Source: Octopus vulgaris
Lineage: Eukaryota
Length of the DNA stretch: 64,000 nt
Reading direction: 5' to 3'
Assembly (NCBI GenBank): GCA_951406725.2
Contig: OX597817.1
Coordinates: 6,572,001 to 6,636,000, forward strand
Shown here: positions 24,806-58,158 of the stretch, piece by piece
How the letters are laid out: each line of letters opens with the position of its first letter
Numbering within the stretch: position 1 is the stretch's first letter
Notes under the pieces: model-generated
Databases searched by the model: none
Seen by the model: the letters and a program-made list of their open reading frames with translations, nothing else
Told to the model about the DNA's origin: nothing
Translations under genes and position numbers: made by a program

Positions 24806-25023
24806 AAATGTGACCTCGTGAGTACCGTTGGCGATTTTTTCCTCTGTCTTCCCTTCTCGGGATATTTCCTTCTCCTATGTTTCCGACGAAGAGCTCCGCT
24901 CGAAACGTTAAACCCCATTTCTTCCCTTCTTTCCTGAGCGTCCAATAATACTATATTTGTTCTACGTCCTCGCGTTGTTGTGTTTTTTTTTTGTTTTTTT
25001 TTGTTTTCTTGTTTGGATTAACT
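24806..25023 (+). mobile_element. Penelope pLTR-like short repeat with hammerhead-like motif (24879-24913)
   Basis: gttt-CCGACGA-a-gagc tcc gctc-GAAACGTT-aaac. Ends ggattaac followed by TA repeats. Homologous to 30906, 33035 and 40380. Confidence 0.75.
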
Positions 25024-28000
25024 ATAATATATATATAGTTTTCAAGAGCTGTAGTATATTAGCTTCCATTTGACAAGTGTGTATCGGTATTTGTGACAGC
25101 GAATTGAAAACAACGGGGCCCCGAATGTCTTTTAGAAAGAGAAAAATTGATTGTTTCTTTTCCCCAAAAACAACAGTTTAATTATATACCTGAGCTAATG
25201 CAAGTTACATTTGTCTGTGTTACTGTGAGCGCAAATTATCAAGTCAACCTACCAAATAATATGCTGCTCAACCAATCAATCATTTATATCTCACTCATGG
25301 CGCTGCATGTTTCATGTGCAAGGCATATATTTTTCATAAACTACACAAATCGATAACTTACTATCAGAGGAACATTTTGCAATACAGTAATAATTTATTC
25401 TATGGACTTCAACAAAGTTTTCTACTTTCGAGTGTTACTAAGAATGTTAATAGACGACTCAAGACTATGGAGAAGTATGTTTCAAGATGCAACGTAGTGG
25501 GTTCGTAACATATATCGCTTCTCTTTACCTCTGTGTGTGTGTCTGTGTGTTTCTTTGTGTGTGTATCCCTGTGGATTTCAGTTTAGTTAGGAATATTACA
25601 TATATATGAAATTTTCTCACACCATGGGTACGTGCAGCTAAAGTACAAGATAAACATTTATTTTATTATAAACAAACGTTAGCTTTATGACAATATTTTC
25701 ACTTCATTCAAGAAAAATAACTTCGTTAAAAATGTAATTTATACTTTGTATATAACCAAACATTGTATTTTACAATGTGATGACGGTAACTACTTATCTG
25801 TTATGAACATGTCAGTAAGTAGTGACAGATTGATTATTACATAACGGAAGAAAACTACGATGTATAATATGTTTGCTTTAAACATGATAATGGCCGATAT
25901 AAGAAAGCAAAACTAACATCTTTTAATCGTCAGATTTGCAATATCCATTTCAAATACCTAGATGCGATGAGAATATTATTCGACACATTCGACACATTAA
26001 TTTTAAGCAACGAATAATAAACAAACGAAAACAACGAGAATCCATTATTTGGTTGCTTGATATGCCAGAAATTGCAGCAAATCTTTCCTAAATTACACTC
26101 GACTCTTCTAGCAAGGCAAGTACGGAAATGCATATTAAATTATACACGATAAATAATTGAAATAACAACCATAATTGAAATGACAATGGTCGGGGCGGGT
26201 GGAAAAGTATACCCGAATTTAATGGGACTTTTCATCCTTGATAATTTGGCTCTCTTTCCACAGCTCTGTACTACATTCAGCTGCCCCATAAGAGTATTTA
26301 AACTGAAAAGAGTTTTGAGCAATAATACAGCCATGTACGCAAACATTATTCTTTTTCTATGTGTAGTTCTTTCGCTCAATATATGATCTAGTATTGGCAT
26401 ATAAGTTCGTGCTATTGTTATGAAAGCTATCACTTAATATATCGACCTCGTGTATTTTCATAGACATCTGCAGCAGTAATAGTAAAAGAAATTCCGTTCT
26501 CAAGATACAAATTCAGGTACATGATTCTATTTTCTGGGAAATAATATGTTACATTACCTATCGTAATAAAGCATGTTTTTCAAAGAAATTACTTAAATTA
26601 TTCAACTAATAATAACTCAAACCTGATATGTTCACGAATTTCTGTTATCTAAATCGACATGCTGTTCGCTTCACCACTTAAGTGTTCCTGTATTATTGGC
26701 TATCCAGGTATAGCGGACACGATGAAATATAATAAAGATCCAATTTGCGGAATGAAACACAAATATTGTGCTACAAAATGAATAGCTCAAATTAGTAGTG
26801 AGGATACTACATAATGGGGGAGCTTTTAGTATGCCTTTATTATCGAGTTCAAATCATCGGCAGTATGTATTTTGGACAGGAATATGTTCCAAGAAAATCA
26901 TTCACTGATATCTAATAAAGATACGTTTTAATTTCACTTATTGTTATGAAATTATATCATTTGAATATCTGTCGTAAAAATGATATCACTATATCACATG
27001 ACTTTATTATACACAAAGCACAGCTTAACATTTTAATTATGTCTTTACCAGTGAAAAAATATCTTCTGTAAATTTATTTACTGGCAGAAACATTAACATA
27101 TAATTTACTATTTGAACTTTAAATGGCATCTCTTTTAAAAACGATATTGCATTTACAATGGCATATTCATTTTCAGACCAATTCACCATAGTTAACAGAA
27201 TTCACCAACGAAACATTCTTCGGTCCCCTATCCTGGTCTCCGAAAGTTTAAACTAACTTTGCTTTTTATACTAGGGTAATAAATACTTTTTTTTATTCTT
27301 AACGCCGATACGTTCTGTTAACAAAATTATCTCGTATAAACCATAAAGACCCTGAGAACATAGAAACAACGTGTTGACGATTAATATACATAATTTATTA
27401 ACCAGGTGGATGTAACTTATTTCTTTCAAGCCAGATCAATTATCCAACACGGCAGTATGGGTGGCTTTTATATTTATCCGCAAGATTTCAATAAAAATAT
27501 GACCGGTAACAGTGACAGACAATTTAATAATTAATAAATTTTAACACTATTTTTGTTGCTAGCTGACAGGTGACATTAGAATGTACAAATTGTAATTGAA
27601 TGTCTTGCTAAACTATATTGCCAAATAATTTCTGTTTAATTATATCGCACATTTTCCTTCGTGCTTTATGGTAAATATTTTACAAATATATATATTTTTT
27701 TTTTCAGTTTAAAAAAAATATGTATTGTGGGTCAAGTTATTTGAATTCTACTGAAAGTTTAACCGAATCTAAGATTTTTAAAGTTATGATATCTTTCGGA
27801 GTTTAATTATTAGATTTTCATTATTAGTTGCGAGGAAACGTCAGGGTCACTGATTGAATTCTTAGAATATCGGACAAAATATAACTTGCCATTTCGCTAC
27901 AGCCATTTACTTTCAGACTTTATATATTTGTGAATTATCTCTGCTTACGATGTCGACCGAATAATTATCAGTCAATATAACTGTCTGTGCCGTCTCCCAA

Positions 28001-29557
28001 AGTGCTAATGATAGAATCAATAATGTCAATGTGAAACACCTACAGTTAATTGGGGTTGTGAAGACATACAGAGAAAACAATGAAATCAAATCAGGCGGAT
28101 ATCGCACCTATTCACTTCACCTTGTCTAGAATCGTCACAAATTTAGAAATTCCACATTAGGTGAGGTGAACAGGTGCGATTAGAGTAGAAGTTTAAATAA
28201 ATATCGTTGATTTCCCTCGTGGCAAAACACCTAATTCCTAACATATTAACAATGATCTTCGAATTATATCTACCATATCATACACTGAGGTTAGTATCCA
28301 AAAGTATGTCTATGCTTTAGATATTGAGAGATCTGCAAACTCTGTCATAGTGGGGTATTGCAAACTTTAACTCCAAACGAAAACCCATGAAACAATAATA
28401 ACTAAATTTGCAGCCAATTCTTTTCAATTGTATTCGGTTATCTGATGTCAACAACAAGATCAAAGTATAAGACACTGGATTTAGATTATGAATTCCTTTG
28501 TGTCTGAGTTCATTATGGAACCAGAAGGATTGCTACAATAACTAAAATATAATGTTATAGAAATAAGCGAAACGGCACGTACAATCGAGGTACATGTTTG
28601 AAAAGTCACCTGAAGAGATATATGTGAAACGATAATGCATGACAATTGGTTGTACAATGTCACCTTTTAGGCACGGGTGCATGATGATTCGAAACAATCG
28701 TAGTGGTCCTGAATAGTCTCGTAACTTCGATATTCTCTCCCTCTCTCGTCATATTGATACATACATACATGCAAACATGCAAACATACATATATGCGTAC
28801 GTATGTACATACATAATAATACATACATACACGTATATGTGTGTATAGGAGCATGAGATAAAGCGTGGAATAACAGTTGCGTGATAAAAGTAACTTGAAT
28901 AGTTCTACAGAGCTTCTTTCATGCATATACTTATATTCTAAATTTAACTTAATGCGCAGCCAAAACAAATGAGTTTAAGGATTTGAATTTTGTATAGTAT
29001 ATGTATAGAGGAGAGGAGGCAGGTGTATGTATATCGGTAAAACAACAAAGTAACGAATGTTTCAAAAGAAGTCTTTTAGAACTATATATATATATATCAA
29101 AATCAACTTGTCTATTATACTTAAAAAGAAAATATCACATTTCATATTGAATAATTTTAGCATATTTTATAATGAACCTGCGAACTTAAAGATAACAATG
29201 AAGTAGAATAAAAAAAAATACTTTCATTGTGACAACAAATAAAATACTTAATATACCGAATGAATTATAAAATATAAAAAAACCCTTTGATATGCATAAC
29301 CTGATTGAGAAAAACATGATATACAAAGGACATATATTATTGCTATATAGTAATGTACTTTAAAAATGAGATAAAACCGACATAGGGCAATATAGGGATG
29401 AAGATACAGGAGTAGTACATAACAAAAATGGACACGGTGTTATGGAAAAGATAATAGTAATGATGATTGATGAAGAGAAAAACTTTATATTACAGTATTA
29501 CTATTGTTTGTGAATGTGACTCCAAAGTTAATAACGTGATACACATCTCTATAACTG

Positions 29558-29591
<34 letters not shown>

Positions 29592-29594
<3 letters not shown>

Positions 29595-29796
29595 CACTTT
29601 TTTGCGTAATAAGAAAAGAACAAGTCTATGTAAATATTAGAGCATTTATAGATAAAAGGTCTTAGAGCTGTTTCTAGGAAACAGCTGTAAGATATTCTGT
29701 ATATCCTAGAAACAGCTGTAAGACCTATCTATCTATAAATGCTCTAATATCTACACATCCTTGGTTTCTTATCTTATTACGCAAAAAATTCTTATA
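29592..29796. mobile_element. ~200 bp palindromic element next to (TA)n with hammerhead 3'-half motifs (GAAACAGCTGTA-agac)
   Basis: ttttttgcgtaataaga...tattagagcatttatagata...ggtcttagagctgtttctagga is the reverse complement of tcctagaaacagctgtaagacc...tatctataaatgctctaata...tcttattacgcaaaaaa. Confidence 0.8.
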
Positions 29797-29950
29797 TGCA
29801 CACACTGACATTGAACCAACGTTGAACCCTTTATTCGCTGTATTACTGAATCTGGATCTTAACTATGGTCTATCTATGGCATTTATTCAGCATTACCTGA
29901 CACTTTTGGGTCTCAATGACACCATTATCTCTTATAACCTCAACTCCTCG

Positions 29951-30028
<78 letters not shown>

Positions 30029-30862
30029 ATGTATATAGAAAGATATTTAATGTAGATACTTGGCAAGGTAATTCGTGGAGAAGATCTCTTCTGAATTACC
30101 TTATCCAAAAGAGCAAGGAAAAGTAAAATAAATCCTACAAAACGATGAAAAATACTCAAGAACTCTATTTAAACAGGCTCTGATTTATTATATAATATAT
30201 ATCCTACAGAATGGCCTTCAGCTAAATATATAGTATACATATAAAACTCATTTATGATGTTTGAGCAAATGTTCATAGAGAATAGATAGAATTATAAGTA
30301 GTACCAAAATATTCTTTTATATTCTGACTTAGGTTTCTTAATTTATGAATGTGGTACTAATACGTAATATATATTCATGCAAAACGTGTAACTACACAGG
30401 ATATGGGACTTGACTATACAAATGTAAAGGAATACATATTTTCATAGGTTTTTTTAAACTGTTTTTTTTATTTTTCAGTGATGTTGCACCCTCCCTTCTT
30501 TTCTTATTTTTTTCCACTCTACCCCCTAAAATGGATTGCATTGAAAGGTCACCAAAACGTGCAAGAAAATGTATTTACAAATATGTTGATAGGTATACAA
30601 TGGAAAGAAAAATGTGTGAAAGGAGAAAGACAAAAAAAATGCTTTGTGGTGAAATGTATGAATATATGCATGTGTATGTATGTATGTATGCATGTATGTA
30701 TGCATGTATGTATGCATGCATGGATGCTAGTATGTATGTATGTATATTTGTATGTATGTTTCTATGTCTTTATGATTTGCTTCAGAAGTTTCGTAGTCTT
30801 GTCATACGAATGAAAGTGCCACGAAGCCGAACCAAATTTTTAATACACACGCGCAGTCACGT

Positions 30863-30905
<43 letters not shown>

Positions 30906-30909
<4 letters not shown>

Positions 30910-31086
30910 ATCCAAACAAGAAAGCACACAAAAACACAACAACGCGAGGACGTGGAACAAATATAGTATTAGTGGACGCCCAGAAAAGAAGGAGGGTTTA
31001 ACGTTTCGAGCAGAGCTCTTCGTCGGAAACATAGGAGAAGGAAAGATCCAGAGAAGGGAAGACAGAGGAAAAAATCGCCAACGGTA
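30906..31086 (-). mobile_element. Penelope pLTR-like short repeat with hammerhead-like motif (30996-31030)
   Basis: Minus strand gttt-CCGACGA-a-gagc tct gctc-GAAACGTT-aaac. The 3' end ggattaac abuts (TA)n. Confidence 0.75.
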
Positions 31087-31216
31087 AACATAGATATATA
31101 GATAAAACACATATGTATATACATACAGATATAAAGAAATTAAAACTCCAGTTCCAGTGGGAGAATACTAGCATCATGCTGGAAACTTTATTTGAATTTA
31201 AATCAAACTGTCTAAC

Positions 31217-31277
<61 letters not shown>

Positions 31278-31503
31278 AGAGGGATGACCACTCGGTGAAC
31301 ATCCACTATGCTAAATGTAGACCCCATATGGTCTGACCACAAACAAAAAATTGCTCTCAAGAAAATTTGGCAAACGCCAGAACGTTAGTGAGCAAGACAA
31401 ATGAAAAGACATAAATTATAATGATTAGTCACATACCAGGTTTCGTCGTTACCATTTACATATTTGAACACGCAGACACACATACACACACACACATACA
31501 TAC

Positions 31504-31592
<89 letters not shown>

Positions 31593-32962
31593 TGATTTGG
31601 AGTAAGAAACAGGGAAATCACTGATGAAGTGAAATATTATTTGCTAGATCTCAACGAGGAAGTGCCCGTGGCCATTGAAGATCTTCTTTAGATGGGTGAT
31701 ATTGATACCATTACTGTACTTCTAAGTTTGTAGCTTAACATTTGTTGCATTGAAATGAGAAGGTAAGAAACGTAAATAAATGAACGTTAAGCAGAATTTG
31801 ACTTCGCGTTCTGGTTATTAGTGTTTTGGTTGGTGGGTACATCAGAAATAATGAGAGGGAAAAGACAATACCTATTTTGGAGAGCCTGATTTGTTGTTGT
31901 AGTATGAACACGGCCATATCGATGGGGCAAAGAGGCTAATATTCAAAAAAGGCAGAGGGAAGAAACAGCAGACCTTTGTGTCGGTTACCTCAGTGGCCCT
32001 TTCCTGAATATGGTTCAGGATGTCATTGTGTACACTGTTCTCAATATGTAAGTAATGCTCCTTTATGAGACTCAACTGATCTTTGTAGATTCTCAATAAT
32101 TGTTGAACACTGAAGTACCACATCCCACCGACTAACATTTAAAGGATGGATTAGTCATGGGGATGCGAACCTAGCTATATTACAAATGGTCTTCTGCTAG
32201 GATAAATTCGTTGTTATAGCGAGACCAAACATTACAACAAACAAATGATGGCGCATATGAAAGGAAGTGCGCGAGAGATATAGAGCTGTGTGTCCTACCG
32301 TTCCCTGATAAATAAAAGGAGGATAGATACGGTTGTTATTTGTACCCGGTAATGCAAAGAATGTAACTAAAAACGTACTGGATTAATTCAATATTCAGAT
32401 ATTACTGTATAAATTATTGTATAAATGTATTATACAATAAGAAGGAGAGGAAAGCAAAAATGGCGAAATACAAACACATCAAAACAATAACTGAGAACAG
32501 CATAAGAGGAAAATAATAACTAACGGAATATGATTGATGATTGCATTAAGTTTATCTAATGTATCAAATTTCAAGTTATCTATTCAACCAAATGTTTAAA
32601 TGTAATTTTTATTTTCAGTTTACTACACATTAAAGCGAATATCACAAAGACGGATGAGTTACGCCGAATAATATGCATGCGGATACTGACAGCTACAAAC
32701 ACAAAAATGCATATTCACTTAGTGAGAGACACTTACATAGTTATTGAAGGTGAAACATGAATATTAAAAACTAGAAGCATATCGAGATATGATTATAGAT
32801 TGTCAGAAAGATAATTATCATATACGTTGTCTATATAGATTGAGATAACCGGAAGAATGCAACACGTCGGACAACAGCATATTTCAGAGAATTCATTCAG
32901 TTAAAGATGAATGTTATCCGACAAAGAACGGAGCTTATATACGTCTATGTTTCTGAATCTGT

Positions 32963-33034
<72 letters not shown>

Positions 33035-33037
<3 letters not shown>

Positions 33038-33300
33038 TAATCCAAATATTAACAAAGAGAAAACACAACAACGCGAGGACGTGGAACAAGTATAGTGTTA
33101 TTGGACGGTCAGGAAAAGGGAGAAAGAAGGAAGACTTTAACGTTTCGAGCGGAGCTCGTCGGCAGAAACATGGAAAAAGGAAAGGGCCAGGGGAAGGGAA
33201 GACATAGAAAGAAAATCGTCAACGCTACACACGCGGTCACATATTGAAATGACCGGAAGGGAATGAGTGAAGAAAAAGTTCTTTAAAAAGACAGGAGAGT
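33035..33300 (-). mobile_element. Penelope pLTR-like short repeat with hammerhead-like motif (33136-33169)
   Basis: Minus strand gttt-CTGCCGA-c-gagc tcc gctc-GAAACGTT-aaag. The 3' end ggattaac abuts (TA)n. The 5' boundary is approximate. Confidence 0.72.
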
Positions 33301-34192: not shown

Positions 34193-34284
<92 letters not shown>

Positions 34285-34374
34285 ATATATATATCTATTT
34301 ATCTACCTATCTGTCTGTCTACATATCTGTCTGTCTATCTATCTATCTATCTATCTATCCATCTATCTATCTAT
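34018..34374. repeat. (CTAT)n microsatellite with (CTAA) interruptions
   Basis: Read directly from the sequence. Confidence 0.98.
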
Positions 34375-36100
34375 CTTCCGCGGTTGGATCGCTGCCTTGT
34401 ATAGCGGCATCCGATCGGTGATTCGGGTGAACGGTCACCTGTCGAAACCGTTTGACATCACGCGTTCGGTCCGTCAGGGGTGTCCCCTGTCGGCGCTTCT
34501 GTATGTATTGACTCTCGAGCCGCTACTGCGGAAGCTGGCGACGCTGAGGGGCATCCCACGGGAACTGGGTTGCGGGACGAGCGCGTCGGCATATGCGGAC
34601 GATGTCACCGTCATAGTGTCGAGCGACAAACACATCAAGATGATAGGCGAGACACTAAGAAAATGCGAAACGGTGACGGGAGCAAAGATTAACCCGGAAA
34701 AGTCAGTGGGTTTGCTACTCGGCACCTGGAGAACCAAGCCCATGCCATCCGACTTCGGCTCAGTAGTGGGACGCTGGACGGACGGACCGGTTAAATTGCT
34801 CGGGGTCTGGTTCAGTCCGGACCTCCAAATGGATAAGAACTGGGACGAGATCACGAGTAGAGTGGTCGCTCTCAGCCAAACATGGGCCGAGAGAAAGCTG
34901 TCTCTAAAAGGCCGGGCGGAGGTGGCGAACGCGTACATCGCATTCGTCATCGATTACCGCCTGACCGTCGTACCTTGTCCCGACGCCACCATCACCAAAC
35001 TGGAACGCATACTCTTACGCTTCCTGTGGAAGGGTGGCGTTCCGATGGTGAGGAAGTCCATTTGCTGTCAACATCCGTTGAATGGAGGACTGGGCATGCC
35101 GTGGTTGATGATGCGCAGGCATGCGCTGAGACTGCGACATCTCTGGAACTTCATCGACGACGGTGAACAGGTGTGGGCGCCGTTTGTGAGGCGCGACTTC
35201 CCGCAGCTCGTCTCACTGACCGAACTGCAAACGTGGATCAAAAAGAGACCGAAACTGGGCGATTGGCACCGAGAGTGTCGCCATGCTCTACAGCAGCTCT
35301 GCCGACCGGTGTCAAACTTGTGCAACTTACAAACGACTAAAGCGTTCTATAGAGGACTAGTGGAGGGGAGGTCCGACGACACACTCGGGGCAAACCTGGG
35401 CGTCGACGAGGAATTCCTAACCCGCCTGTTCAGGACGACGTTCGGGCCGGGGCCTATGGATAACTTCCAGAAATCCCTGGCTTGGCAGTGCTATCGAGAC
35501 GCACTACCTGTTCGAGAGAAGAGCTACAGACACGGTTCGAAAACCATCACGGGACCGACCTGCCCGAGATGCGGTCAGAGCGACGAAACCGTTCTGCACG
35601 CACTCGTGCAGTGTCCAGATATTTCAGAGCTGTGGTCCTTCGTCGAACAGCTGTTGTCACGTGTAAGTCGGGCTCGCCTATCGGCCGAGTCTATCGTGAA
35701 TATTGTTCCACCACCTTCCTTTAAACGGGAAATGAAAACGGTTTTCGTTATGCTGATGGCTATGGCGAAAGAACGTGTGTGGTGGACGCGTTTGAAAGGA
35801 CTGCAAACAAACACCTTCCTCTCTGGTCAGTCTCTCGTCAACTTTTTCAAGTACCACTTGAAAAGGAGGATGAGAATAGAGAAGAAGGCTTTGTCGAACG
35901 AATGTTTTAATAAAAAGTGGGTAAAAGTGGCATAAATGGTCAGTATGAAAGACGACACTATTTTAAGCATAAATCTGTAACCAAAAGAGACAACGAGAAG
36001 TAAGGCGACTTACTCATGTGCTTTTTTCGAATTGTCTGAGGTTACCTTGGTCCTTTTTGTAGGTTTTTCTTTCCAAGGCTACACCTAAACTGTGAACCTT

Positions 36101-36152
<52 letters not shown>

Positions 36153-36304
36153 CTTTTTTATACACCACACAACCCACAGATCCCTATTGATCAAACGTTT
36201 TTTTTTTTTTGTGCCCCACCTATCCCACCTCGAAAAGAAAAATTCTACATTGTATTTCGTCCATTTTTATTCTGTGTTTAGCCCTGTGTGGCTACAATAA
36301 AAAG
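34375..36304 (+). mobile_element. Tx1/L1-clade LINE copy 1, 5'-truncated (RT C-half, CCHC, 3'UTR)
   Basis: ORF 34397-35935 has VRQGCPLSALLY, AYADD, KINPEKS, LSLKGR, GGLGMP and CPRCGQSDETVLHALVQC. The 3'UTR ends aataaaaag followed by (tatc)n. Confidence 0.95.
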
Positions 36305-36404
36305 TTATCTATATATATATCTATCTATCTATTTATCTACCAATCTGTCTGTCTACATATCTGACTGTCTATCTATCTATCTATCTATCCATCTATCTAT
36401 CTAT

Positions 36405-38377
36405 CTTCCGCGGCTGGATAGCTGCCTTGTACAGAGGCATCCGTTCGGGAATTCGCGTGAATGGACATCTATCGAGACCTTTCAACATTGCACGTTCGGT
36501 CCGTCAGGGATGCCCCCTCTCGGCGCTTCTATACGTATTGACTATTGAGCCACTACTGCGGAAGATGGCGACGCTGAGGGGCATCCCGCGAGAATTGGGA
36601 TGCGGGACGAGCATGTCTGCATACGCGGACGACGTCACCGTCATAGTGTCAAGCCACGAGCACATCGAGCGGGTCGGCGAGACACTGAAAGACCACGAAG
36701 AGGTGACAGGACCAAAAATCAACCGGGAAAAGTCAGTGGGCTTACGGCTCGGCACCTAGAGAAGCAAGCCCATGCCGTCCACTAGTACCTCCGTCGTGGG
36801 ACGCTGGACAGACGGCCCGGTTGAGTTCCTCGGGGTCTGGTTCGGTCCGGACCTCCAAATGGAGAAGAACTGGAACGAGATAAAGAGTAGGGTGGTCACT
36901 CTCGCCCGGCAATGGGCCGAGAGGAAACTGTCCCTAAAAGGTCGGACGGAGGTGGCGAACACATACATCGCGTCCATCATCTACTACCGCCTGACCGTCG
37001 TACCTTGTCCTGACCCTACCATCACCAAACTAGAACGCATTCTCTTCCGCTTCTTGTGGAAAGGATGCGTCCCGATGGTCAGGCGATCCATTTGCTGTCA
37101 ACACCCGTTAAAAGGAGGGCTGGGCATGCCGTGGTTGATGATGCGCAGACACGCGCTTAGACTGCGACATCTCCGGCTCTATGTAAACGACGGTGAACAG
37201 GTGTGGTCGCCGTTTGTGAGGCACGCGTTCCCGCAGCTCGTCTCCATGACCGAACTGCAGTCGTGGATCAAAAAGCGGCCTAGGAAGGGCGAATGGCACC
37301 GCGAGTGTCGCGTTGCTCTCAAGCAACTCTGCCGTCCCGGGTCAACCTTGAGTGACTTCAACACAACCAAAGCATTCTATAGGGGATTAGTGGAGGGGAG
37401 GTACGATGACGATCTTGGGGCAAACCTGGGCGTCGACGAGGAATACCTGACCCGCCTGTTTGAAACGACTTTCGGGCCGGGACCTATGGACAACTTCCAG
37501 AGATCCCTGGCCTGGCAGTGCTACCGAGAAGCGCTACCCGTTCGGGATAAGCTCTATAGGCATGGCACGAGAAACACGGGGCCGATCTGCCCGAGATGCG
37601 GGCAGAGCGACGAAACCGCTCTGCACGCAATCGTGCAGTGTCCAACAATCTCCGACCTGTGGGCTTATGTCGAACGACTGCTGTCACGTGTGGGACGTGT
37701 CGGTTTATCAGTCGAGTCTATCTTTAATATCGCCACGCCTCCTTCCTTCAAACGGGAAGGAAGAGCTATTTTTATCATACTTGTGGCTATGGCGAAAGAA
37801 TGTATCTGGTGGACGCGCCTGAAAGGATTAGAGACAAACACTTTCCTCTCTGGTCAATCTCTCATCAACTTCTTCAAGTATCACTTGAAGACGAAAGTGA
37901 GAGTAGAGAGGCAAGTTTTGTCTAGTGAATGCTTTAAAAAAAGATGGGTGAATGTAGCAAGGATGGCACGTTTGAATGACGAGGCCACCTTGACTATGAT
38001 TCTATGAACCGTAAAAATTAATACAGAGAGTTGCTTATTTGCAAAAAAAAAAGAAATATAACATGTGACTTCATTGACCGAGGTTACCGTTGTCTTTTCC
38101 GTAGGCTTTTCTTTCCACGGATAAACCTCACCTGTCCTCCCCTTTACACTTCACATTGACATTTCTGTGATAACGATCGCTATTGATCAATTTTTTTTCC
38201 TTTCCCCCTTTTTTTTGTTTTGTTTTAATTTTATCCCCCCTTTTTTGTCCTCTTTCTTTTCTTTTACGATCCCTTTTGATCGAAAACCAAACTGCCTTTT
38301 TTTTACCCCCAAAAGAAAAGCTCTACCTTGTAATATGTCCTGTCTGTGTGCAGCCCTGTGTGGCTAATAAAGAAACA
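36405..38377 (+). mobile_element. Tx1/L1-clade LINE copy 2, 5'-truncated, different subfamily
   Basis: Same motifs across ORFs 36427-36759 and 36772-38007, with one TGG->TAG stop at 36757-36759. Ends aataaagaaaca followed by (tatc)n. Confidence 0.95.
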
Positions 38378-40312: not shown

Positions 40313-40379
<67 letters not shown>

Positions 40380-40381
<2 letters not shown>

Positions 40382-40585
40382 CCGCGTGTGTATCGTTGGC
40401 GATTTTTTTCCTCCGTCTTCCCTTCCTTGGATCTTTCCTTTTCCTCTGTTTCTGACGAAGAGCTTCGCTCGAAACGTTAAACCCTCCTTCTTTCTTTCCT
40501 TTCCTGACCGTCCAATAACATTATACTTCTTCCACGACCTCGCGTTGTTGTGTTTTCTCTTTGTGTTTTTATGTTTGGATTAACT
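40380..40585 (+). mobile_element. Penelope pLTR-like short repeat in (TA)n
   Basis: Homologous to 24806, 30906 and 33035. (TA)n on both sides. Confidence 0.78.
40448..40482 (+). ncRNA. Minimal type-I hammerhead ribozyme motif, best-preserved copy
   Basis: gttt-CTGACGA-a-gagc ttc gctc-GAA-ACGT-T-aaac. Canonical CUGANGA and GAAA, 4-bp stems I and II, palindromic ACGT stem III, predicted cut after GUU at 40478. One extra A after the core. Confidence 0.7.
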
Positions 40586-41176
40586 TTATATATATTTATC
40601 ATCATCATATATATAAATTAGAAATAAGCTACCACAATATTTCACTTTTGTCTGATGTTTCCCGCATGCGTAGAATACTACTGAGATAGCAGGCGTAAAT
40701 AATACGAGACCACCACCAGAAAACCCGATATGGTACAAACAACAGATAAACAACATTATTTCTCAAGAAAATTCCCCGCTTTCCAAAATGCTAAAAGTGA
40801 AACACTACGAGTGTGCAGCTTTTTCAAAGATTGAAAAAAGTAACAAATGAATTTGATGTGGAGAGTGAGAAAATTAAAATATTGAGTTGTTTTGTTGGTG
40901 AAATTATAATCTCCTGTATCGCAAACATAAGAATCGGAAGAAATTGGTGAAAAAAATATTGCGGGCGGGGGAACGCAAATGTCACCACGGACATGCTAGA
41001 ATGATTGGCGTAATTTTCCGTAAATTAAAAAAAAAAAATTTATGCTTTCAAGAGAGCAGAAACCGAAAGAGAGGTGAAAGAGAAAAAGGTGACATTTACT
41101 TTAAAGTGAGAGCAGAAGGTGAAAGAGAGGAGACAGTGAAAGATGTATGTATGTGTATATGAAATGAACGTGTGTG

Positions 41177-41215: not shown

Positions 41216-44182
41216 AAATAGAGAGTGTGAGGAAGTGAAGGTGTGTGTTGTGGCCCTCATTAGTGAATGAAAATAAAGTTTATTTGGTAGGCGAAAGCTT
41301 AGTGAATTTATTGATATTATATGCGTCAAAATCGGCAACTCGGTTTGAATGCATAAGGAACACACACACCCCCACACACATACACACACACACACACATA
41401 CACACGTACAAACTCTCTTTTATAGATATAGACAATATATAAATATATATAGGATATATATTCTTGTATGCCAGTCTGTCTGAGTGTAAATGCGTGCGTG
41501 TGTGTTTAAGTGTGTGTGTATCCGATTACTTTGCAGAAACATGCATACACACACTCATTAGGAGACAATTGCAATTGCTAGAAGGCGTTTCTCACAGGTT
41601 TTTATTTGTAAATTATTTAGTCCTTGCGGCGCAGCGAGCTTTGTTTGTATTCCTAAATGCAGTTTTTGTGATATTGCTATTCCAGTTCAATTGAAATTCA
41701 GCTGTTGTACCTATATAGTTTTGCAACTTATCGGGTGCACTTCCAGAGCAATGATATACGTAGTATATAAGCGTGCGTATGTTATTATTATTTAAAATCT
41801 GATAATTATTCTTCACCGAGAACCAAATATTATGGAATATGGTGTAGCTAATGTTAGGATGTAATAAATATTTGATATCGGAAAATACAGATGTGTACAA
41901 ATTTTTGTAACCAAAATGTGCAGTGTATTAGTATTGGTCAGAAAACCAAGAGAAAGAAAAATACAATTCCATTGTAATGAGAGGAGAATAATAGAAACGG
42001 AAAAACACTGAAAATTGATTAACACTACTTTGGTTTAATTCACTTAACAACACATTCTGAAACTAGAAACAATGTTCAAGAAAATTATACTTATTTTAAA
42101 AACGCAAACGCTACTATTCGCTTGTACTACAGACCAATAACCTATTTATCAACAATAAGAAATACTTGAATTTATAATATCTGAAATTTAGCCGCACTTT
42201 TGTTTATTAATAATATATTGACAAATCAAACTAGATTGCCGATATATAAAGAGCAACTCATTCTAAACCGCTCATTTATTAATCACTTGAGAGAGAAATA
42301 TACATCTAAGTATAGCATAGCTTGACTCTGTCCCAAACTCATGCATATAATTGATATACATAATTACGATAATACAATGGCCATAGCGTGAAATGTATGT
42401 CAATCACCCTATATCAAAAAGAAAAACTTATAACATAACATAGTGGCGCGTAGAAATCAGCTCTAACCACCGGAAATCTTACTCTTCAAACATTATTTTG
42501 TCTTGCTACGAATAAAACTACCAGCCTTGATGAATATTATGGACAAACTACAGATCATTTCCTTTATATTGATAATTTTAAGTTGTATACAAAACATAAT
42601 ACTAGCATGATCATTTAGTAAAGATTAAGGTATTTAAAGTATTTAATTCAGCTTGGGGAATGAAATTCGAGAATTAAATCAAAGCCATCCATACAGTACT
42701 TTCAAATGTATCAAAATGGTAATATACAACACGTAGGAATAAAATAGTTTATAATTGTTAAATGTAAGTTCGTGTTAGGTAGAGAATATTTATGAATTGT
42801 GGATGGAACACACCACAGAGAGAGGGAGAGACACAGAGAGAGAAACCTACATACTCACATACACACGCATACATACTTGTCCTGAAAATTCTCACGTTTA
42901 TTCCTCGAAATACAATGAAACGCACAATAGTTCCTGAGTATACATCCACTGACAAGCAGGGTACAGTCAGATAGTAAATGACCGCATTGACTCAAAATTC
43001 AAATATTTCCATATCACGAGCACATTCTATGAGTATTATTAACTTTTATTTTTTCGTAATGAGCAAAAGTAGCTACTTCAAATTCTAGTTTTTACTCTTA
43101 GGCTTCATTCATTTTCTAGGAGATCCAGTAATCGACTGTGGCGTGGAGAAATGCTTTGAAATAATACAGCGAGCTTGTGCTTCTAAGTTCATTAAATATG
43201 AAAGTGAAAGCTCGCAGTACGCTGTGTATTAGTCTATTCTCTTTGACTTCTGTTAATATGATTTCCAATTCAGGCAGAAAACCTTAAATTTAGCGTGAGA
43301 AAATAGTCGATTAAAGAGACTACTGCACCTATTTGATGACACGGGAATGTTGAAAGGAAACATCAACTCCAGCGAGATTTGATCTGCGAATGGAAATGTA
43401 ACAAATAAATGCTACATAATAAATTGTCCGTTGATATACCAATTTTAATAATCTATCTTGCTTATGTAATTATAATACTGTTCGAGATAGGTACAAAGAC
43501 AGAGATTTCCTGAGATGGAAGAATCGATAACATTGATCCCAGAACTTGGCTTGTAAGTTATTCATCAATAAATGTAAAGAGCTGAAGGGAAGGAAATGCT
43601 GTGAATCCAAGTTCATTGCTGTGCTGCAGACCTTGTCTACCTATCAAGCTTATTTATGTATAGTAGCATATAATACGGAGGAAAAAATATAATAAGAAAA
43701 TATAAAGTAAAATGATATGAAAGGTATGGAATAATTAGTTATCTTAATACATACTTTAACGTCACACATTTTCCAACACACAGTCAAAAGCTACATTGTA
43801 TAAGCGGATTAAAAGAATAATTAATGAATCACTTTAAAAATTACCAATTATACTCTCACAATCTGTAAACAACCTCCGATAACGTACAGCTTAGTGAGCA
43901 CGTTGTTTGATATCTTTTCTACCAGTTTACCAAAAATGCACATCAAAACAGGTTTTGTGATTTGTTTTAACTAACTTTATAATGAATAAAGTCTATATAA
44001 TATATGATAGTTAATTTTAAGAGACAGAAAATTAATTAAACCACTGCGCATTAAATAAATGCGTACTCATCCAAAGATAGTACACACATATCTCTGTGTG
44101 AGTTTATGCGTGCATGCTTGTGTATGTGTGTGTTTGTGTATGTATGTATGTGTGTATTTGTATGTACATATATGTGTATATA

Positions 44183-50184: not shown

Positions 50185-50188
<4 letters not shown>
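49959..50188 (+). mobile_element. SINE family B, tail type 1, full length
   Basis: ggcggcgagctggcagaaacgttagc...gcaataaaggaata followed by (TA)n. Confidence 0.93.
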
Positions 50189-50247
<59 letters not shown>

Positions 50248-50368
50248 GAAATACAATATATATACTGCGAGAGATATTTACATACCGAACCAGACAGAGA
50301 GAGAAGGCGAAGCGTGATCTTATTAGCTATCTACCCGTTTGAGGCTGTCTATGTTTCTGTGTGTGTGT

Positions 50369-50438
<70 letters not shown>

Positions 50439-50763
50439 ACATACATATATATGTATATTTATACACACACGCACGCACATACACCTGTAGCATGTAAGTA
50501 TTCTTGTAGACAGAGCTTTAGAAAAGCAATATTCCATTCATCTGTGTCTGAGTGAATTCATTTCAATTAATTATTTTTCATTCTTTGTCTCACCTACATT
50601 TATTTACGTTTTAGATTTTTTTAAAAAGTTGTTTCTATTTCCATTTGTTTTTCTAAAAGCTATAAAATCTATGGCTAAATATAATGTTTCCCCGTCTAGT
50701 ACATTCCGATACTAATTAGCATTCAGGTAAACGTTTGTGTGTTTGTTTTTTCTTTTTTTCCTA

Positions 50764-50832
<69 letters not shown>

Positions 50833-50931
50833 GTATAACTCTCGGTTCATTAGTTACACTAAATGCCGACAATAGAGAATGTAGAATGGGAATAATTAAA
50901 TAAATATATAAATGTATACACACACACACAC

Positions 50932-51002
<71 letters not shown>

Positions 51003-51005
<3 letters not shown>

Positions 51006-51235
51006 CTTTTATTCTTTTTATTCTTTTACTTGTTATGGTCATTTGACTGCGGCCATGCTGGAGCACCGCCTTTAGTCTAGAAAATCGTCCCCAGGACTTT
51101 TTCTTTATAAGCCTAGTACTTATTCTATCGGGCACTTTTCCCGAACCGCTATTTAGGGGGAAATAAAGGCACCAACATCTATTGTCAAGCGATGTTGGGG
51201 GGACCAACATAGATACAAACATATACAGATACGTA
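51003..51235 (-). mobile_element. SINE family A 3' half
   Basis: gtcatttgactgcggccatgctggagcaccgcctttag...tgtcaagcgatgttggggg. Confidence 0.88.
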
Positions 51236-51312
51236 CATAAATACATATATACATATATATACATATATATACATATATATACATACATATATACATATAT
51301 ATACATACATAC

Positions 51313-51344
<32 letters not shown>

Positions 51345-53494
51345 TCATGGAGAAGTAAATACAGAAATATATATACATATACATTACTTTTATCATCAAT
51401 TTTCCATACCGGAAACCAACGAAACCAGCGCAGGTAACAAACATCTTTGGTGACGTCCAGCTGTGACTAAAGAAGGTGCCAAATGAGTGAGATCCAAATG
51501 TTTCTAAATATGCCATCCAAAACCTAACTATGTTTGCAATGTTTCAGAAAATCTTCTTGTGTTTGTATTGTTTTACGTTTCAATAAATATTTTTCTTTCA
51601 GCTCTAGAGTCACAGACAGCATTCATACTAATATCACCCCCATCAGATATTATTACTTTACTTTAAAAAACGTACCGTTCTGCATCGGCAAAACTATTTC
51701 AGTATGAATTAAAATGTATGATAACATGCCTGAGATAGAAGTGAATGTTTACCTTCAATAACAAACATTAATTAATCACTTCACAGCAAAGCAACTTATG
51801 TATCATATGTATTGATTTTTAAAGTGAGGATAGTTTCTCATATGTATGTTGAGTGAGATTGCGATCTCGTAAACAGTCCTAAATTTTCCAATGGTTTTCT
51901 TCATAACGTAAAGTGATTTTGATGATCAGGGACATGTTTTGCTAAAAGTTGTTCCCAAAACGGCATTTTTTATTGATATGTCAAATAGCGATAACATTCA
52001 TTTGACAACAATATTTACTAAAATATTATCCTCACGCTTTAATTTATTGTTTCTTGCCTAACTTGGTATTTATCGTACACCCTTTCATTTACAAAATATA
52101 TTAGCGTTTGCTCTGTGTATGTTTGCTTTGACAGACAGATCTTATTACCATTTATGAAGTAGTTCTTTGATCTGACAATGATAATAAAAAAGGAAATATA
52201 ATACATTCCCCGGCGTGTATGAGCATGCGTGTGTTATTGTGTTTGATTGTTCATATGTCAATCGTATCAGATTCCACGACAATATTAAAAAAATATATTG
52301 CACTCATTATAAATGTATAGATAAATATTCTAGTTAAATGAACAAAAATTAGAAATATCCTGTGTGGCTGATAATATTTCTGGACCTAAATAGAAGCAAT
52401 CAGACAACGAATATTGTTCAACTATATCCGGGAACAAATATTTTAGAGAAAAATAACAGTCTCTGATTCAGTTATTCTGATAGATATATATATATTTTAC
52501 TACCTTGTCAAGGAGATGCTGATGATGTCCGTGAAAGCTAATTTTATTTAGAGCTTTTGAGGCTAGTAAATAGAAAGGAGAAATTTGTTCCCAATCTGGA
52601 GACTTGAGCATCAGATTTTAAAAGGACTGAATTTGTCTAAACACACAAAGATGAGACGATAGTGTTAAACCTGTTGAGAACTCCAAACACAAAGTGACAG
52701 AACAAATACCGGAGAAATACTAACAATTCCACAGATTTACTGTCCCTGGTTTATCAATTTATTTAATCAATCCGAACATCTGAAAGACAATATTGATCTC
52801 ACCATTAGTTGAAAAGTCTAAACAAAATATCGCTTTGTATTTTATGCTACCCTCAAATGATTCTCTCAATGTAAATGAAAAAAAAATGATAAAAGATGGG
52901 GGAAAAAGCAGAATACAGATCGAAAATAGAAAAATGGGAGAGATATAGAAAGAAAGTTGAGACAGAATAATACCCCAGAAATGGAGAAGACGATGATCGT
53001 AACAATAACAGGAGTAAATATTTGAATTAGTAATGATACGAGAAGAGAAATGGAAAATTAGGGGTGAAAAAAGACAAAAAGACGACAGACATCTCTCTAT
53101 ATGCCACTCTATATGCAAGAGCTTATATACAATTATTCAGGTGATTGTGGTATGACATATAAAATATGGCATACCACATACAGTTGTACGTGCCATAAAT
53201 ATACCTGTAGCTAAGCTTTTCAAATAAGCATCGTAGTTAAAACACAGTGTTGTCTCTGGTAAATGAAATGAAGTGTAACACAATGTTTTACTCGATTTCA
53301 CATCAAGAATATTTATTTTATAAACATCAGAGAAGTTTATTTTATTCGTTGTAAAGAGAAACAAAACGAACGTATAATAAATTCGGCAAGTAAATATGCA
53401 TTTTCATATCAGTAAATCTTTTGGAGATGTATAGTAATTCACTAAAGTATCATGTCTTCAGATATTTCTCATATTTTGCTACTTATAGCTATAC

Positions 53495-53832
53495 TACTGC
53501 AAAGCTTCGGCAATTTTAGCCGAAAGAATCTACCCCAATACGCATGTATTTTATGCCTGGTACTTATTTTATTGGGTCTTTGCCGAAGCCCTAAGTCTAA
53601 GGACGACACACACCAACACCAGTTGTCAAGCGGCGGATGGGGACAAACACGGACGCAAACACACACACTCACACACTTACACAAGCATACACACATACGA
53701 CGGGCTACTTTCAGTTTGCGTTCAGTAAATCCCTTTACAAGACTTTGGTCATTTCGAGGCTATAGCAGAAGACACTTACCAAAATTCTGAACTCAGAATC
53801 ATATGGCTGGGAAGCAAACTTCTTACCACACA
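53495..53832 (-). mobile_element. SINE family A, decayed
   Basis: Reverse-complement match to 3017-3429. Confidence 0.75.
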
Positions 53833-54415
53833 TGTAGCGGTATAAATTGCAAATAAATTTACAGGAGTATGTTAGATAAATATATGTTTAGTTCCAATAG
53901 ACACCATCGACATACCACAGGTCAATCTCAACAGAGATGCTTTCTTATTGGCTCAGAATTCTGAAAATCAAAGTTTGAACAGCTGTAACATTTTTCTGGA
54001 ATAAATGTATAACAAATTCGGATTCAGCGTTAAAAATCACATCTATATGGTATATTGCCAAAATACATTTAAGATAATTGCAAACAGTGACGAAAACCAC
54101 AAAGATAAACACAAATTCGCAAAAACATTCTGAAAATATCAAAAAATAAGGAAAGTCATGAATATTTAAATAGTAGGCTCAATCACAAGTCCTCCAAATG
54201 TTGAAGTATTTTTCTGGGACGGAATAGCTGTCCCACCCTTCGATATTTTATTGTATTCAACATTCTCAAACACATTCAAGTTGCACTAAAACAATTACAA
54301 TCTCTCCACTTAAATCATACCTCTCCCAAAATTTATTATTTTCGTTATTCTAGCATGTGGAGAGACATTCTAGGCTCAAATTCAAGCGCTGGTTGAAAAT
54401 CACCTGACAAAAAAA

Positions 54416-54745
54416 TTCTGGGGTCGATACATTCAACTAAAAATTCTTCAAGGCAGTTCTCCAGAATACCGCAGTTTAATGATTGAAGAAGTACAAAGGA
54501 AAAAAACACACAATAAAAAAACGAAATATATCACTGATGTGGTTTTGACTTGACTTAAAAAATAATTCTGGGTTCCATACAGTCGTCTAAAAATAATACA
54601 AGATGGTTCCCCAACATGGTCGTAGTCTAATAACCGCAATAAGTAAAACGGAAAACAAATTTCTGGGGTCGATGCGTTCAACTAAAACTCTTCAAGACAG
54701 TACCCCAGTATGGCAACCGACTAATGACTGAAACATGTAAAAGGG
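54416..54745 (+). repeat. Three tandem degenerate copies of a SINE family A-like 3' tail
   Basis: Units begin ttctggggtcgat at ~54416, ~54566 and ~54661, each followed by aactaaaa...caagg...ccagcatgg-like...taatgactgaaac-like sequence. Confidence 0.65.
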
Positions 54746-56049
54746 GAACAAACGAAAAATTACCGAAAAATATAAACGAGGGGGTTTTGTCCACTTTCAC
54801 ACTTTAACTATGGGGGTTTTGGTCTACATCCATGCGGAGGACTTGCTCCGTTATCTAGTTAAGATTGTAGATGTTTGCTTTTTTTTTATAAATATTGAAT
54901 TTCTAATCTGCTAATTTGTTTTTGGATAAATCTTAACTTTGTGCTATAAGTTTCTTACTTTAAGAAATATTTAATTTGCAATGTCCTGTTTATCGCATTA
55001 AATGCATATTAAATGCTTAAAACTATAAAATATGTGTTGTTTACTCGTTTTCTTTTTTTGTCATTGAGTTGGTTGTGAAGTATGCTAAAAAGAACAGGTA
55101 AATAAGCCTTAAATCACGAACCCGTACAGTGTACTTTTTTTGTTTTTTGCATAATCGTATCAAGTCCTATGTACAGAATAAAATTCACAAAAAACGTCTG
55201 GAAATTCCAAAATTATATATAATGTTATGAGGGGTCTATATGGCGTTCTTAAAGCCCTGGGAGGAGGTAAAGACATGGATCACACCCCTTCCCGTATTTT
55301 TGGTGGGGTGGGATTCTAGAGAAACCCAATTTTTCGACTTCTGAGATTCCGAATCTGCAAAAAAATCACAATTTCAATTTTGTTCTACACATTTCACCAA
55401 AAGTAAATTCTAAAAAATTGAAAAATGGGGAGGTGAATTTGGGGGTGCTTATGCTTCATTAGCTTTACAGTGGATCTGCCCCTACGAAAACTATAAAATT
55501 CTCCATGATTTCATGTCATTGAAGCTAAGATATACTTTGCTTTTAAAATAAAAAGTAATTTAGATCTCAACTTGATTGGTGGCGTGACTTACTCTCCTAT
55601 AATTTTTATGTAAACTTTTTTCTACTCGATCAAATCTCAATTTTCTTATGCCAAAATGTAACTAGGAACCAGCTCTCTTCAAAAATGTTAACAGTTTTCA
55701 ATATGGTTAAGAACTGAATTGGAGACAAACTCTGAAATATACTGCGTGTGAGTAAACTGCGGCGTTAAAAATATTATTCAACTACGGTAGTAGCTGAATG
55801 ATATACATATACAATAGTATAATACAATATATATATATGTATATATGTATATGTATGTAGATATATATATAAATATATATGGAAAGAGAGAGAGAGAGCG
55901 AGAACAGCTTGATTCAGAATCATGCATTTTAAATTTGCCAGTGGGAGCGGGGCACACGCATGCGTATACGTTTGTCAAAGTTGTGTTCGTTGTACCTTTG
56001 TGTCTTATTTTGCGCATGATTTTTCCCTTGCGAGCGCGTTTATATGTCT

Positions 56050-56097
<48 letters not shown>

Positions 56098-56895
56098 AGA
56101 CATATAAAGAATGTTTGCATGTATGTGCATTTATGTCTGTCTTTGATTAAGTGTGCATATATGTATCTGTGCGCCTGGGATGACATGCGTGTGGTTGTAC
56201 GTGTGCTTTCGTATGCCACTATGCATAACTGAGTGTTTCTATGTATTGAATGTTCATTTTATCTAAGTGCTTTTGAAATAATATTGTCACTTGCACGACT
56301 GGTGTAAAAAGTATTTGAATAATTCATAATTTGTCCAATCTACAATCGATACATATCTGTCTTTGCCTGCCATATTGTCTCAGTTTATGCCCATTATTTT
56401 CTCTGTCTGCTTTCTATCAGCTCTGTATTCTGCCTTTTCGCCACACAATTTGTCAACATCTCTCTTTCTCACCCACTCTTTCTTTCCAATTTTCTCTTTC
56501 CCTGTCTTCCTGCCTATGTTTAAGTTACTTCCTGTTAATTATTATTTTTATTATTTTGTTTTTGGTCCTCTTACTGATTCACGCCTGCCATTCTGCTATG
56601 TTGTTTCAATATATATTTATCTGTGTGGCTATTTCTCTCTGCATCTGTCATTCTATCCCTTTGCATTTACCTGTTTAATGACACCATTTTCTATCCCGTC
56701 CACTGTCTGTCTGTCATTCTCCCTTTCTCTATCTCTCTCTCTCACTTACTCACTCACTCTGGTTTTTCTTATTGTCTTGTTTTAGTTCTCTCTATATCTC
56801 TCCCTTTTCTGCCTTAGTTAATATGTCACCCCCAAACTATTTCAATTTGTCACAATATATTACTGTATTTTCTTGTATGCCTGTCAATTAGACAG

Positions 56896-56957
<62 letters not shown>

Positions 56958-57022
56958 TGTGTGTATGTGTGTATATATTTGCATAATACATATATGTATA
57001 TATATATCAATATATATATATA

Positions 57023-58158
57023 GGGAGAATTCACAAAAAACAAAAGACGAAGGCAGGTGGTATGGACTACAAACAGATGTATTAGTTTAAAGGTCGGGAA
57101 GTGAAAGAGTCTTTAACGTTTCGAGAGTACGCTCTTCCGCAGAAAGGAACATAGAAAGAAGCAAGGAAAGAAAATAAAGAATGTGTAGTGGCTAGCGATC
57201 TATCATGGCGAATGCCGGACAGAGGTGTCACGCAGGATACCTAGAAAGAAGGGGAGATAATAACGTAGTGGTGATCCCAAAATGAAGGTGCGCGTGCCTG
57301 TATATAAGAGAGTATGTTTGTGCGTGTGGGAGAGGGCTGGTGACCTTGACGTGTGCGAGTGTGTATGTACAGGTGTGTGGATATGGGTATGGGAAGTGGT
57401 CAGTGCTAGTGTGTTCGTGGTGGTGTGATGTTATGTGGTATTGTGTGGTATGGTAGTGTACGGTGTAGTGGTGTGTGGTGTGGTGTGATGGTGTTGGAAG
57501 TTGGGGGTGGCGACTGTGGGGAAAGCAAGTGTGGGGTGTTGGTTAGGCTGAGAGTGGGGTAGAGGTGGGTTATGTGAGTAGGCTGAGGGTGGGGTAGATG
57601 TGCAGTATGTGTGAGGGGATGTAAGGTGTGGATGTAAGGAATGTGCAGTATGTGGGAGTGGATGTAAGGTGGGATGTGATGGGTAGGGAAGGCGAGGATG
57701 GATTGTGTAGGGGTGGGGTGGGGTTACGAGGGAGGGGTTACGATGGAAGGCATAAGAAGTAGGTATGTAAGACTGAACAGAAGAGAGGAGTGTAGGAGTG
57801 AAGAGAAGAAGTAGGAGTCAGAGCAAGAGAGGAGAGGTGGGTGGAAAGAAATAGGTGTGAGGGGGAGAAGGAGAGTTGAGCCCATGTGGCGCAAAGGAGC
57901 GAAGAGAGAAGATTAATCCCTGTTCACCGAGCAAACGGGAGTCCGGATAACCCCTGTGCAAGGACAATCCGAACACAGGCAAGTGTTGCAAAGAATTACT
58001 GGTAGAGCGGAAATAACGTGAGACCGTGTTGTCATTGCCGAGTCGGATGTCTCGGAGGTGTTCTGCGAACCGGTCAGCTATGCAGCATCCCGAGAAGGGC
58101 AGAGACAGCAGGAGATGCAGTAGATGACATTGGTAGAAGTGCAGGTGAAAGAGTTGGA
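57023..58158 (-). mobile_element. Penelope-like element 3' portion: GIY-YIG endonuclease remnant, pyrimidine-rich 3'UTR and pLTR with hammerhead-like motif (57111-57146)
   Basis: Minus strand SNSFTCTSTNVIYCISCCLCPS [YIG segment deleted, frameshift] IADRFAEHLRDIRLGNDNTVSRYF...RLLGEQGLIFSLRSFAPHGLN. Motif cttt-CTGCGGA-a-gagc...tc-GAAACGTT-aaag. The 3' end abuts (TA)n. Confidence 0.88.

Follow-up and report, generated by a model that had tools for sequence, protein, structure and literature searches.

Predicted Penelope-type minimal hammerhead motifs in an apparently undescribed ~220-bp repeat family of Octopus vulgaris, with a likely U4C sub-lineage

We analysed a 64,000-nt stretch of the Octopus vulgaris genome (GenBank assembly GCA_951406725.2, contig OX597817.1, positions 6,572,001 to 6,636,000 of the forward strand), hereafter the window, which has 36% G+C and dense microsatellites. 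Five minimal type I hammerhead motifs were located in its sequence (n = 5), each at the position given by an earlier annotation made from the letters alone, the original prediction. Four of them sit mid-way in one repeat of ~220 bp that ends in GGATTAAC plus (TA)n. The fifth ends the remnant of a Penelope-like element (PLE) and lies downstream of a piece of GIY-YIG endonuclease, as had been proposed. The features are as follows, in positions of the window.

24802..25022, + strand: mini-element c24, full length, then a degenerate (TA)n tract
24879..24913, + strand: hammerhead motif with U4C core CCGACGA, predicted cut after 24909
30906..31090, - strand: mini-element c31, ~25 nt shorter at the 5' end and with a 9-nt deletion after the motif, then (TA)n
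30996..31030, - strand: hammerhead motif with U4C core, predicted cut after 31000
33036..33248, - strand: mini-element c33, full length, then (TA)n(TG)n
33135..33169, - strand: hammerhead motif with A6C core that no longer has the outer pair of stem I (likely through decay), predicted cut after 33139
40379..40584, + strand: mini-element c40, with a long (TA)n upstream and a short degenerate TA tract downstream
40448..40482, + strand: hammerhead motif with canonical core CUGACGA, predicted cut after 40478 (GUU)
57023..57110, - strand: 3' end of a decayed Penelope-like element, then (TA)n
57111..57146, - strand: hammerhead motif with A6C core and a stem II of 3 bp, from a second family of autonomous type, predicted cut after 57115
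57147..57871, - strand: C/A-rich low-complexity 3' untranslated stretch from the endonuclease remnant to the motif, weakly similar to the read-through tails of P0008 (E=0.016) and P0010 (E=0.048)
57872..58158, - strand: what is left, with a frameshift, of the C-terminal GIY-YIG endonuclease of a Neptune-like Penelope element (E=2e-15 to P0078 by tblastn; 95 phmmer matches)

All five motifs share one layout, in which stem I leads into a seven-base core, one extra base, stem II, GAAACGTT and stem I'. The extra nucleotide after A9 and the G10.1-C11.1 pair are present throughout (5/5), and none of the motifs has a stable stem III; a palindromic ACGU stands in its place, together with the NUH triplet GUU. 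Stem I measures 4 bp in four motifs and 3 bp in c33, against a range of 3-5 bp for minimal hammerhead ribozymes (min-HHRs). The canonical core was observed at 40.4 kb only, where the expected cut after 40478 proved to be correctly placed behind GUU. The motifs at 24.9 and 31.0 kb carry the U4C core, and those at 33.1 and 57.1 kb have A6C cores (CUGCCGA and CUGCGGA, respectively). The combination of CUGANGA and GAAA is present in c40 and, as we infer from public contigs, in the majority of the family. A strict descriptor (4-bp stem I, CYGNNGA, stem II and GAAANNTH) gave four matches in the window, compared to a mean of 0.02 and a maximum of 1 in 100 local dinucleotide shuffles. It missed the 33.1-kb motif because the outer stem I pair there is G.G, and a scan with a 3-bp stem I returned the five motifs and no others. 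A TA-type tract lies 3' of the motif-bearing end in all five cases, where ~2% would be expected per random site (chance ~0.02), which bears out the earlier statement that the repeat ends on (TA)n. Rfam gave no match for the window motifs at the gathering score.

This anatomy agrees with the published consensus for min-HHRs in the pseudo-long terminal repeats (pLTRs) of metazoan PLEs (Cervera and de la Pena 2014, PMC4209133). The likeness covers the type I arrangement, the short stem I, the extra nucleotide after A9, G10.1-C11.1, the palindrome for stem III, the NUH triplet, the U-rich 5' flank and the occurrence mostly as single dispersed copies, and the window design is near-identical to the Acropora digitifera min-HHR listed there. 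Unlike the consensus CUGANGAH, four of the five window motifs have U4C or A6C, and unlike that published set the host unit has a shared 5' end. Judged by their sequence, the four dispersed repeats and the 57-kb element thus carry putative Penelope-type minimal hammerheads, as the original prediction had held. Such min-HHRs in PLE ends are weakly active as dimers (PMC4209133).

The four copies of the repeat are 82-94% identical over ungapped columns, occur in both orientations and have unrelated flanks. Each ends in GGATTAAC followed by a TA tract, ~106 nt past the cut site, so the shared 3' end that had been noted was seen in 4/4 copies. The accompanying claim of variable 5' ends was mostly wrong because the 5' motif is shared: three of the four copies begin at a common TGACC and c31 alone is shorter, and c24 and c33 retain an upstream AAAATG/AATATG, as public contigs do. 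A tblastn search with 97 endonuclease homologues gave no match to coding sequence upstream of any of the four copies, no tandem copies of the family were found in the window, and ARAGORN reported no tRNA gene there, a tRNA-derived head not having been otherwise looked for. The family is non-coding and discrete, with many dispersed copies; the evidence for its 5' end is partial. Near the 3' end of the unit, at 40533-40552 (+) and the equivalent places in the other copies, we observed a conserved hairpin and then a T-rich run, a candidate recognition signal for a helper protein. The downstream flank of c40 (40635-40790) belongs in turn to another family that is moderately repeated (summed depth ~20,000), and a short interspersed nuclear element (SINE)-like copy lies directly upstream of c24 in the opposite orientation.

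The 57-kb motif is that of a different family and not the parent of the other four: identity is 75.7% over 70 nt around the motif and ~51% overall. The endonuclease remnant on which this element is recognized lies in two frames, 58158-58099 and 58081-57872, both matching the P0078 endonuclease; its YIG half was lost at the frameshift. P0078 passes the Pfam GIY-YIG cut-off, and the remnant alone has no Pfam match. The second-ranked homologue, P0002, is a named GIY-YIG protein of Octopus bimaculoides. A word-indexed protein search of the remnant gave 110 candidates, none significant, and the full HMMER search then gave the 95 matches. No reverse transcriptase (RT) was matched by tblastn in the window upstream of the remnant in the same frame. 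The motif follows 730 nt behind the remnant on the same strand, and (TA)n another 90 nt on. Like Neptune-clade PLEs (Craig et al. 2021, PMC8557442), the remnant has a C-terminal GIY-YIG with the FTCTS-NVIYCI-C-LC and RF-EH...GLN pattern, and the element has a hammerhead downstream and a microsatellite target; unlike them, it is without RT and without the CX2-5CxxC linker, a region missing from the window remnant and present in its homologues P0078 and L136 (see below). The linker is a feature of both Neptune and Nematis elements (PMC8557442), and the remnant could conceivably be of the Nematis kind. We read the 57-kb element as a dead, 5'-truncated PLE with a C-terminal endonuclease, Neptune-like, and filed it as no more than a remnant, since it is truncated. 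An assignment to Naiad PLEs, in which an N-terminal endonuclease is followed by CxC and RT and which are without a canonical hammerhead, was rejected, since the remnant is followed instead by an untranslated stretch, the hammerhead and the element end. Directly upstream of the remnant, at 58165-58928, there is an imperfect palindrome of ~760 bp with arms 73-79% alike around a long (TTC)n, which resembles a miniature inverted-repeat transposable element.

To assess abundance and ends, contigs from four of 24 listed public sequencing runs, two presumed DNA (under two organism labels) and two presumed RNA, were mapped on 40374-40790 at 80% likeness; 24 of 758 loose ends and 40 of 99 variants were listed and used. 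The two DNA runs gave 15,566 and 15,202 contigs matching this stretch. Summed depth over the unit, which is not a copy number, reached up to 3.5 million, compared to 15-65 for listed single contigs, and it was below 1,600 just after 40611, past the unit's end. We take this only to show that the family is very abundant, with probably tens of thousands of copies. Family contigs were also present in the two presumed RNA runs, where contigs carry no start, end, strand or level. Among the 5' loose ends listed, the top class falls before 40379 (96, 146 and 44 contigs) and has ..TCAAAATG in common, with low agreement upstream of it (0.44-0.53), as mixed flanks would give. The 3' loose ends listed at 40599 are (TA)n.

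These ends bear on a reading in which the repeats are 5'-truncated tails, or solo pLTRs, left by an autonomous and abundant Neptune family of which the window has no whole copy, with no mobility of their own and with a 5' end that is a preferred RT stop or a natural pLTR edge. Most PLE insertions are indeed 5'-truncated with one terminal repeat (bioRxiv 10.64898/2026.07.22.740005; PMC4209133), PLEs account for 6.83% of the assembly in O. vulgaris (PMC13282606 supplement), one window copy (c31) is shortened 5', and 66 of 88 coral-type instances described below have no endonuclease upstream. Against this, the top 5' class has mixed flanks rather than a single shared upstream sequence, three of the four window copies begin at one point, the 97 endonuclease homologues found nothing upstream of the four copies, and depth is not higher toward the 3' end, where a truncation ladder would rise. 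We regard truncated tails as a possible but clearly less probable origin.

The same contigs bear on tandem copies, which exist and look rare: five back-going joints were among those listed, in ~35,000 contigs, at depths of 10-63 (the single-locus level), three of them in DNA runs. Animal non-LTR retrozymes also carry type I hammerheads (PMC7229834; bioRxiv 10.64898/2026.07.22.740005), and the family could in principle be one of them, its tandem sources being cut by dimeric hammerheads, circularised and reverse-transcribed, with the window holding dispersed monomers. The ~220-bp unit lies within the retrozyme length range (PMC7229834), retrozymes originate from the pLTRs of PLEs and may comprise many monomers (bioRxiv 10.64898/2026.07.22.740005), and the few head-to-tail joints would fit. 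However, those joints are the only ones listed and the window has none, the ends are fixed with the cut site mid-unit rather than at permuted ends, and the motif is minimal, not a canonical type I with loop contacts. A retrozyme therefore seems very improbable here. Like retrozymes and the non-autonomous PLE derivatives of the Chlamys MRC1 type (PMC8557442), the family is short and non-coding, and it is likely derived from a PLE end and moved in trans. MRC1-type derivatives and retrozymes form pLTRs, head-to-tail arrays or circles, whereas the window family is nearly always single, with fixed ends and a minimal motif.

The reading that we prefer, at a probability of roughly 65%, is that the ~220-bp repeats are single dispersed copies of non-autonomous derivatives of a Neptune-type PLE pLTR, copied in trans from RNA that was likely uncut. 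The original prediction had offered 5'-truncated or non-autonomous pLTRs; its second option fits the shared 5' end and mixed flanks better than random 5' truncation does. The unit would be transcribed, via an internal promoter or by read-through, and a helper RT-endonuclease would nick a (TA)n tract for target-primed reverse transcription. Copying would begin at the GGATTAAC end, which lies ~106 nt past the hammerhead cut, and would usually reach the common 5' end (TTCAAAATG). The template would likely be uncleaved linear RNA, because every copy spans the cut site, the ends are fixed and tandems are rare. With such a template a weak core would cost little, and cleavage would likely be unneeded for spread, so that sources with a weakened core (U4C) could found sub-lineages and inserted copies would decay neutrally, as by A6C or a lost stem pair. 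The 57.1-kb motif would be the 3' pLTR of the 5'-truncated, dead Neptune-like element, a different family. With a purified protein of the Poseidon clade of PLEs, hammerhead core mutants inserted normally, unprocessed RNA was the main substrate and the protein was needed for cleavage (PMC11167929). The U4C change lowers activity in vitro and still permits viroid infection (PMC3088659).

Several points weigh against this preferred reading. The purified-protein work concerns a Poseidon-clade element, not Neptune. No helper element for the ~220-bp family was found in the window, whose sole hammerhead-bearing endonuclease remnant shares the motif region only. The 5'-end evidence is partial: the top class accounts for roughly one in ten of the contigs that fit in part (96/1,013 in run X1), 531-629 contigs overran the ends of the 40374-40790 stretch, and this evidence comes from contigs only. 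Depth along the unit is confounded by the divergence of c40 from the family majority. Finally, folding energies favour the active form in neither the monomer nor the dimer: the double hammerhead has -5.7 kcal/mol, compared to -27.8 kcal/mol for the best dimer, in a nearest-neighbour model that ignores core contacts.

We next consider the two copies with the U4C core, c24 and c31, which had been suggested to mark a sub-lineage spread with a non-canonical core. They group at 7/7 informative sites (7:0:0), are 93.8% identical and agree with the family majority letters better than c40 does; for these reasons, and on two copies, they likely form a sub-lineage. The suggestion holds in this respect, and U4C itself is not a new core, since it is a published natural variant. 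Among the 40 of 99 variants listed, those inside the motif were a loop II letter (unlike that of c40 in at least 96%) and, in stem I, a C-to-T change that keeps a G-U pair (6-35%), with no change at a core position. Because every variant listed reaches at least 21% in one run and none is U4C, we infer that U4C is below about a fifth of the family if variants were ranked by share, a figure that mapping to c40 may bias down. The U4C sub-lineage is probably a minority of the window family. The pair might also be a local accident, a duplication or gene conversion of nearby copies with no transposing sub-lineage behind it, given that there are two copies only, 6 kb apart, and that U4C is absent from the variants listed. 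Yet the two differ in orientation, have unrelated flanks and diverge by 6%, their remaining letters are those of the family majority, and U4C founds a transposing lineage in another animal. We consider an accident unlikely.

That lineage emerged from public collections scanned with the same motif design, with position 4 freed and the other core positions fixed, so that the scan cannot show whether U4 is singled out. The exact window-family pattern was not found in metagenome contigs or in viral contigs (0 in each). A coral-type pattern matched at least 120 metagenome loci (~5,100 estimated) and 26 loci in contigs of metagenome-assembled genomes (MAGs), with none in viral contigs; of these 146 search loci, none was like the window family outside the motif. 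The canonical form of the coral-type motif equals the published PLE-linked motif of Acropora digitifera (PMC4209133 supplement), and for this reason the loci are evidently animal host DNA. The 160 instances matched comprise 71 CCGACGA and 89 CTGACGA, with the limits that some loci overlap and that a single assembly supplied 22 of the 26 MAG loci. In 88 instances the upstream sequence extends for 400 nt or more; of these, 22 show a Neptune-type GIY-YIG ~101 nt before the motif, in DNA of these other animals (16/44 with U4C and 6/44 canonical). The 3' untranslated stretch is thus ~100 nt in this family, compared to ~730 nt in the window remnant.

A tree of 139 distinct 95-nt downstream flanks, from which the motif was left out, changes between U4 and C4 nine times, compared to 46 when shuffled. 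One well-supported branch separates 70 U4 and 2 C4 rows from the rest, with the bootstrap not settled, and 33 unselected flank copies were mostly broken by inversion junctions. The locus L136 has an open frame of 775 codons that ends 98 nt before CCGACGA and whose RT and GIY-YIG matches both fall just below the Pfam cut-offs; its five sister copies match the locus at 98-99% identity. The lineage is entered as:

L136:2496-4953, - strand: young coral-type Neptune PLE lineage with U4C (also L128, L129, L137, L140 and L144)

From the open frame of L136 and the near-identity of its sisters, we conclude that a U4C lineage with an open frame spread recently in that animal. The loci of the L136 group lie in MAG contigs labelled as a bacterium, and that assembly therefore likely holds animal host DNA. 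Many coral-type copies (L001, L020, L034, L040, L080, L122, L134, L135 and others) are head-to-head inversions with the junction inside the hammerhead core or no more than ~40 nt upstream. At L133:2497-2532 (+) we saw a single instance of yet another U4C family, in which stem I has covaried (TACT/AGTA).

The fold itself was compared across eight motifs from four families. In these, 93.8% of stem cells are paired, compared to 8-50% in slid controls, a figure inflated by related rows and a hand-picked set, and three of the four stem I pairs change on both sides. This cross-family conservation with stem I covariation points to constraint on the source elements. The covariation first noted within the window, gttt/aaac versus cttt/aaag, exists as well, as a single pair between two different families. 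Monomer folds did not surpass those of shuffled sequences (z -1.07 to +0.57). The proposed check, whether the motif is more conserved than its flanks, gave no significant excess among the four family copies on substitutions (invariant 29/35 versus 104/141, p=0.38); with gaps counted it gave p=0.012, and it was dropped as support. Three of the four copies have a core change, which together with p=0.38 speaks against selection on inserted copies.

In the boldest reading, the family would be a parasite of Neptune, SINE-like and fixed at its ends, that numbers tens of thousands of copies and in which U4C is a repeatedly selected attenuator and the fold is kept as a protein-binding signal. We hold this to be unlikely. 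If true, elements with weakened ribozymes would have outcompeted canonical ones in octopus-type and coral-type lineages, uncut RNA being the transposition template; the family would be among the largest hammerhead-bearing families in an animal, and the lineage pairs would make the in vivo role of PLE hammerheads testable.

The window also holds other repeats. A second GIY-YIG-like remnant was seen by eye at 41616-41830 (-) (LIY...YIGTT), possibly of Penelope/Poseidon type; it is without Pfam support, and no hammerhead was found nearby. Two adjacent non-LTR retrotransposon RT remnants at 34193-35935 and 36301-38007 (+), 82% identical and with RVT_1 and zf-RVT matches, are presumably L1/Tx1-like. 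Broken frames at 1031-1861 (+) and 61314-61634 (+) we take, by motif, to be mariner-type transposases. A second abundant SINE-like family (24424-24792, 3029-3423, 15191-15549, 51017-51259 and others) is one that we assume to be a candidate octopus SINE.

Parts of this picture have precedents. Non-autonomous PLE derivatives and microsatellite targeting have been described (PMC8557442), and in comparison with the Neptune clade the ~220-bp family is without coding sequence. U4C and A6C are natural hammerhead variants with low but detectable function (PMC3088659; PMC7151607), and CYGANGA is already in use as a descriptor (PMC13481778). In contrast to those published variants, U4C here marks transposon sub-lineages in animal genomes, which we did not find described in the literature searched. 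The searchable supplement of PMC4209133 lists no cephalopod, and the accessible portions of the O. vulgaris repeat annotation (PMC13282606) and of PMC8967140 make no mention of ribozymes. The literature searched yielded neither an account of a hammerhead family in octopus nor one of U4C in PLEs; Repbase, Dfam and PLE hammerhead-variant surveys lay outside the search and may record them. The ~220-bp family is real and abundant, and apparently undescribed.

These findings imply no new mechanism. They touch on the role of the hammerhead in PLEs, which is unsettled between a processing signal, a dispensable passenger and a parasite. The ~220-bp family may be a sizeable, mislabelled share of octopus repeat libraries, and descriptors with a fixed CUGANGA undercount PLE hammerheads, and would pass over 44% of the coral-type instances sampled here. 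In conclusion, the young U4C coral-type lineage and the U4C sub-lineage of the window suggest that elements can spread in vivo without full ribozyme activity, in agreement with one in vitro study.

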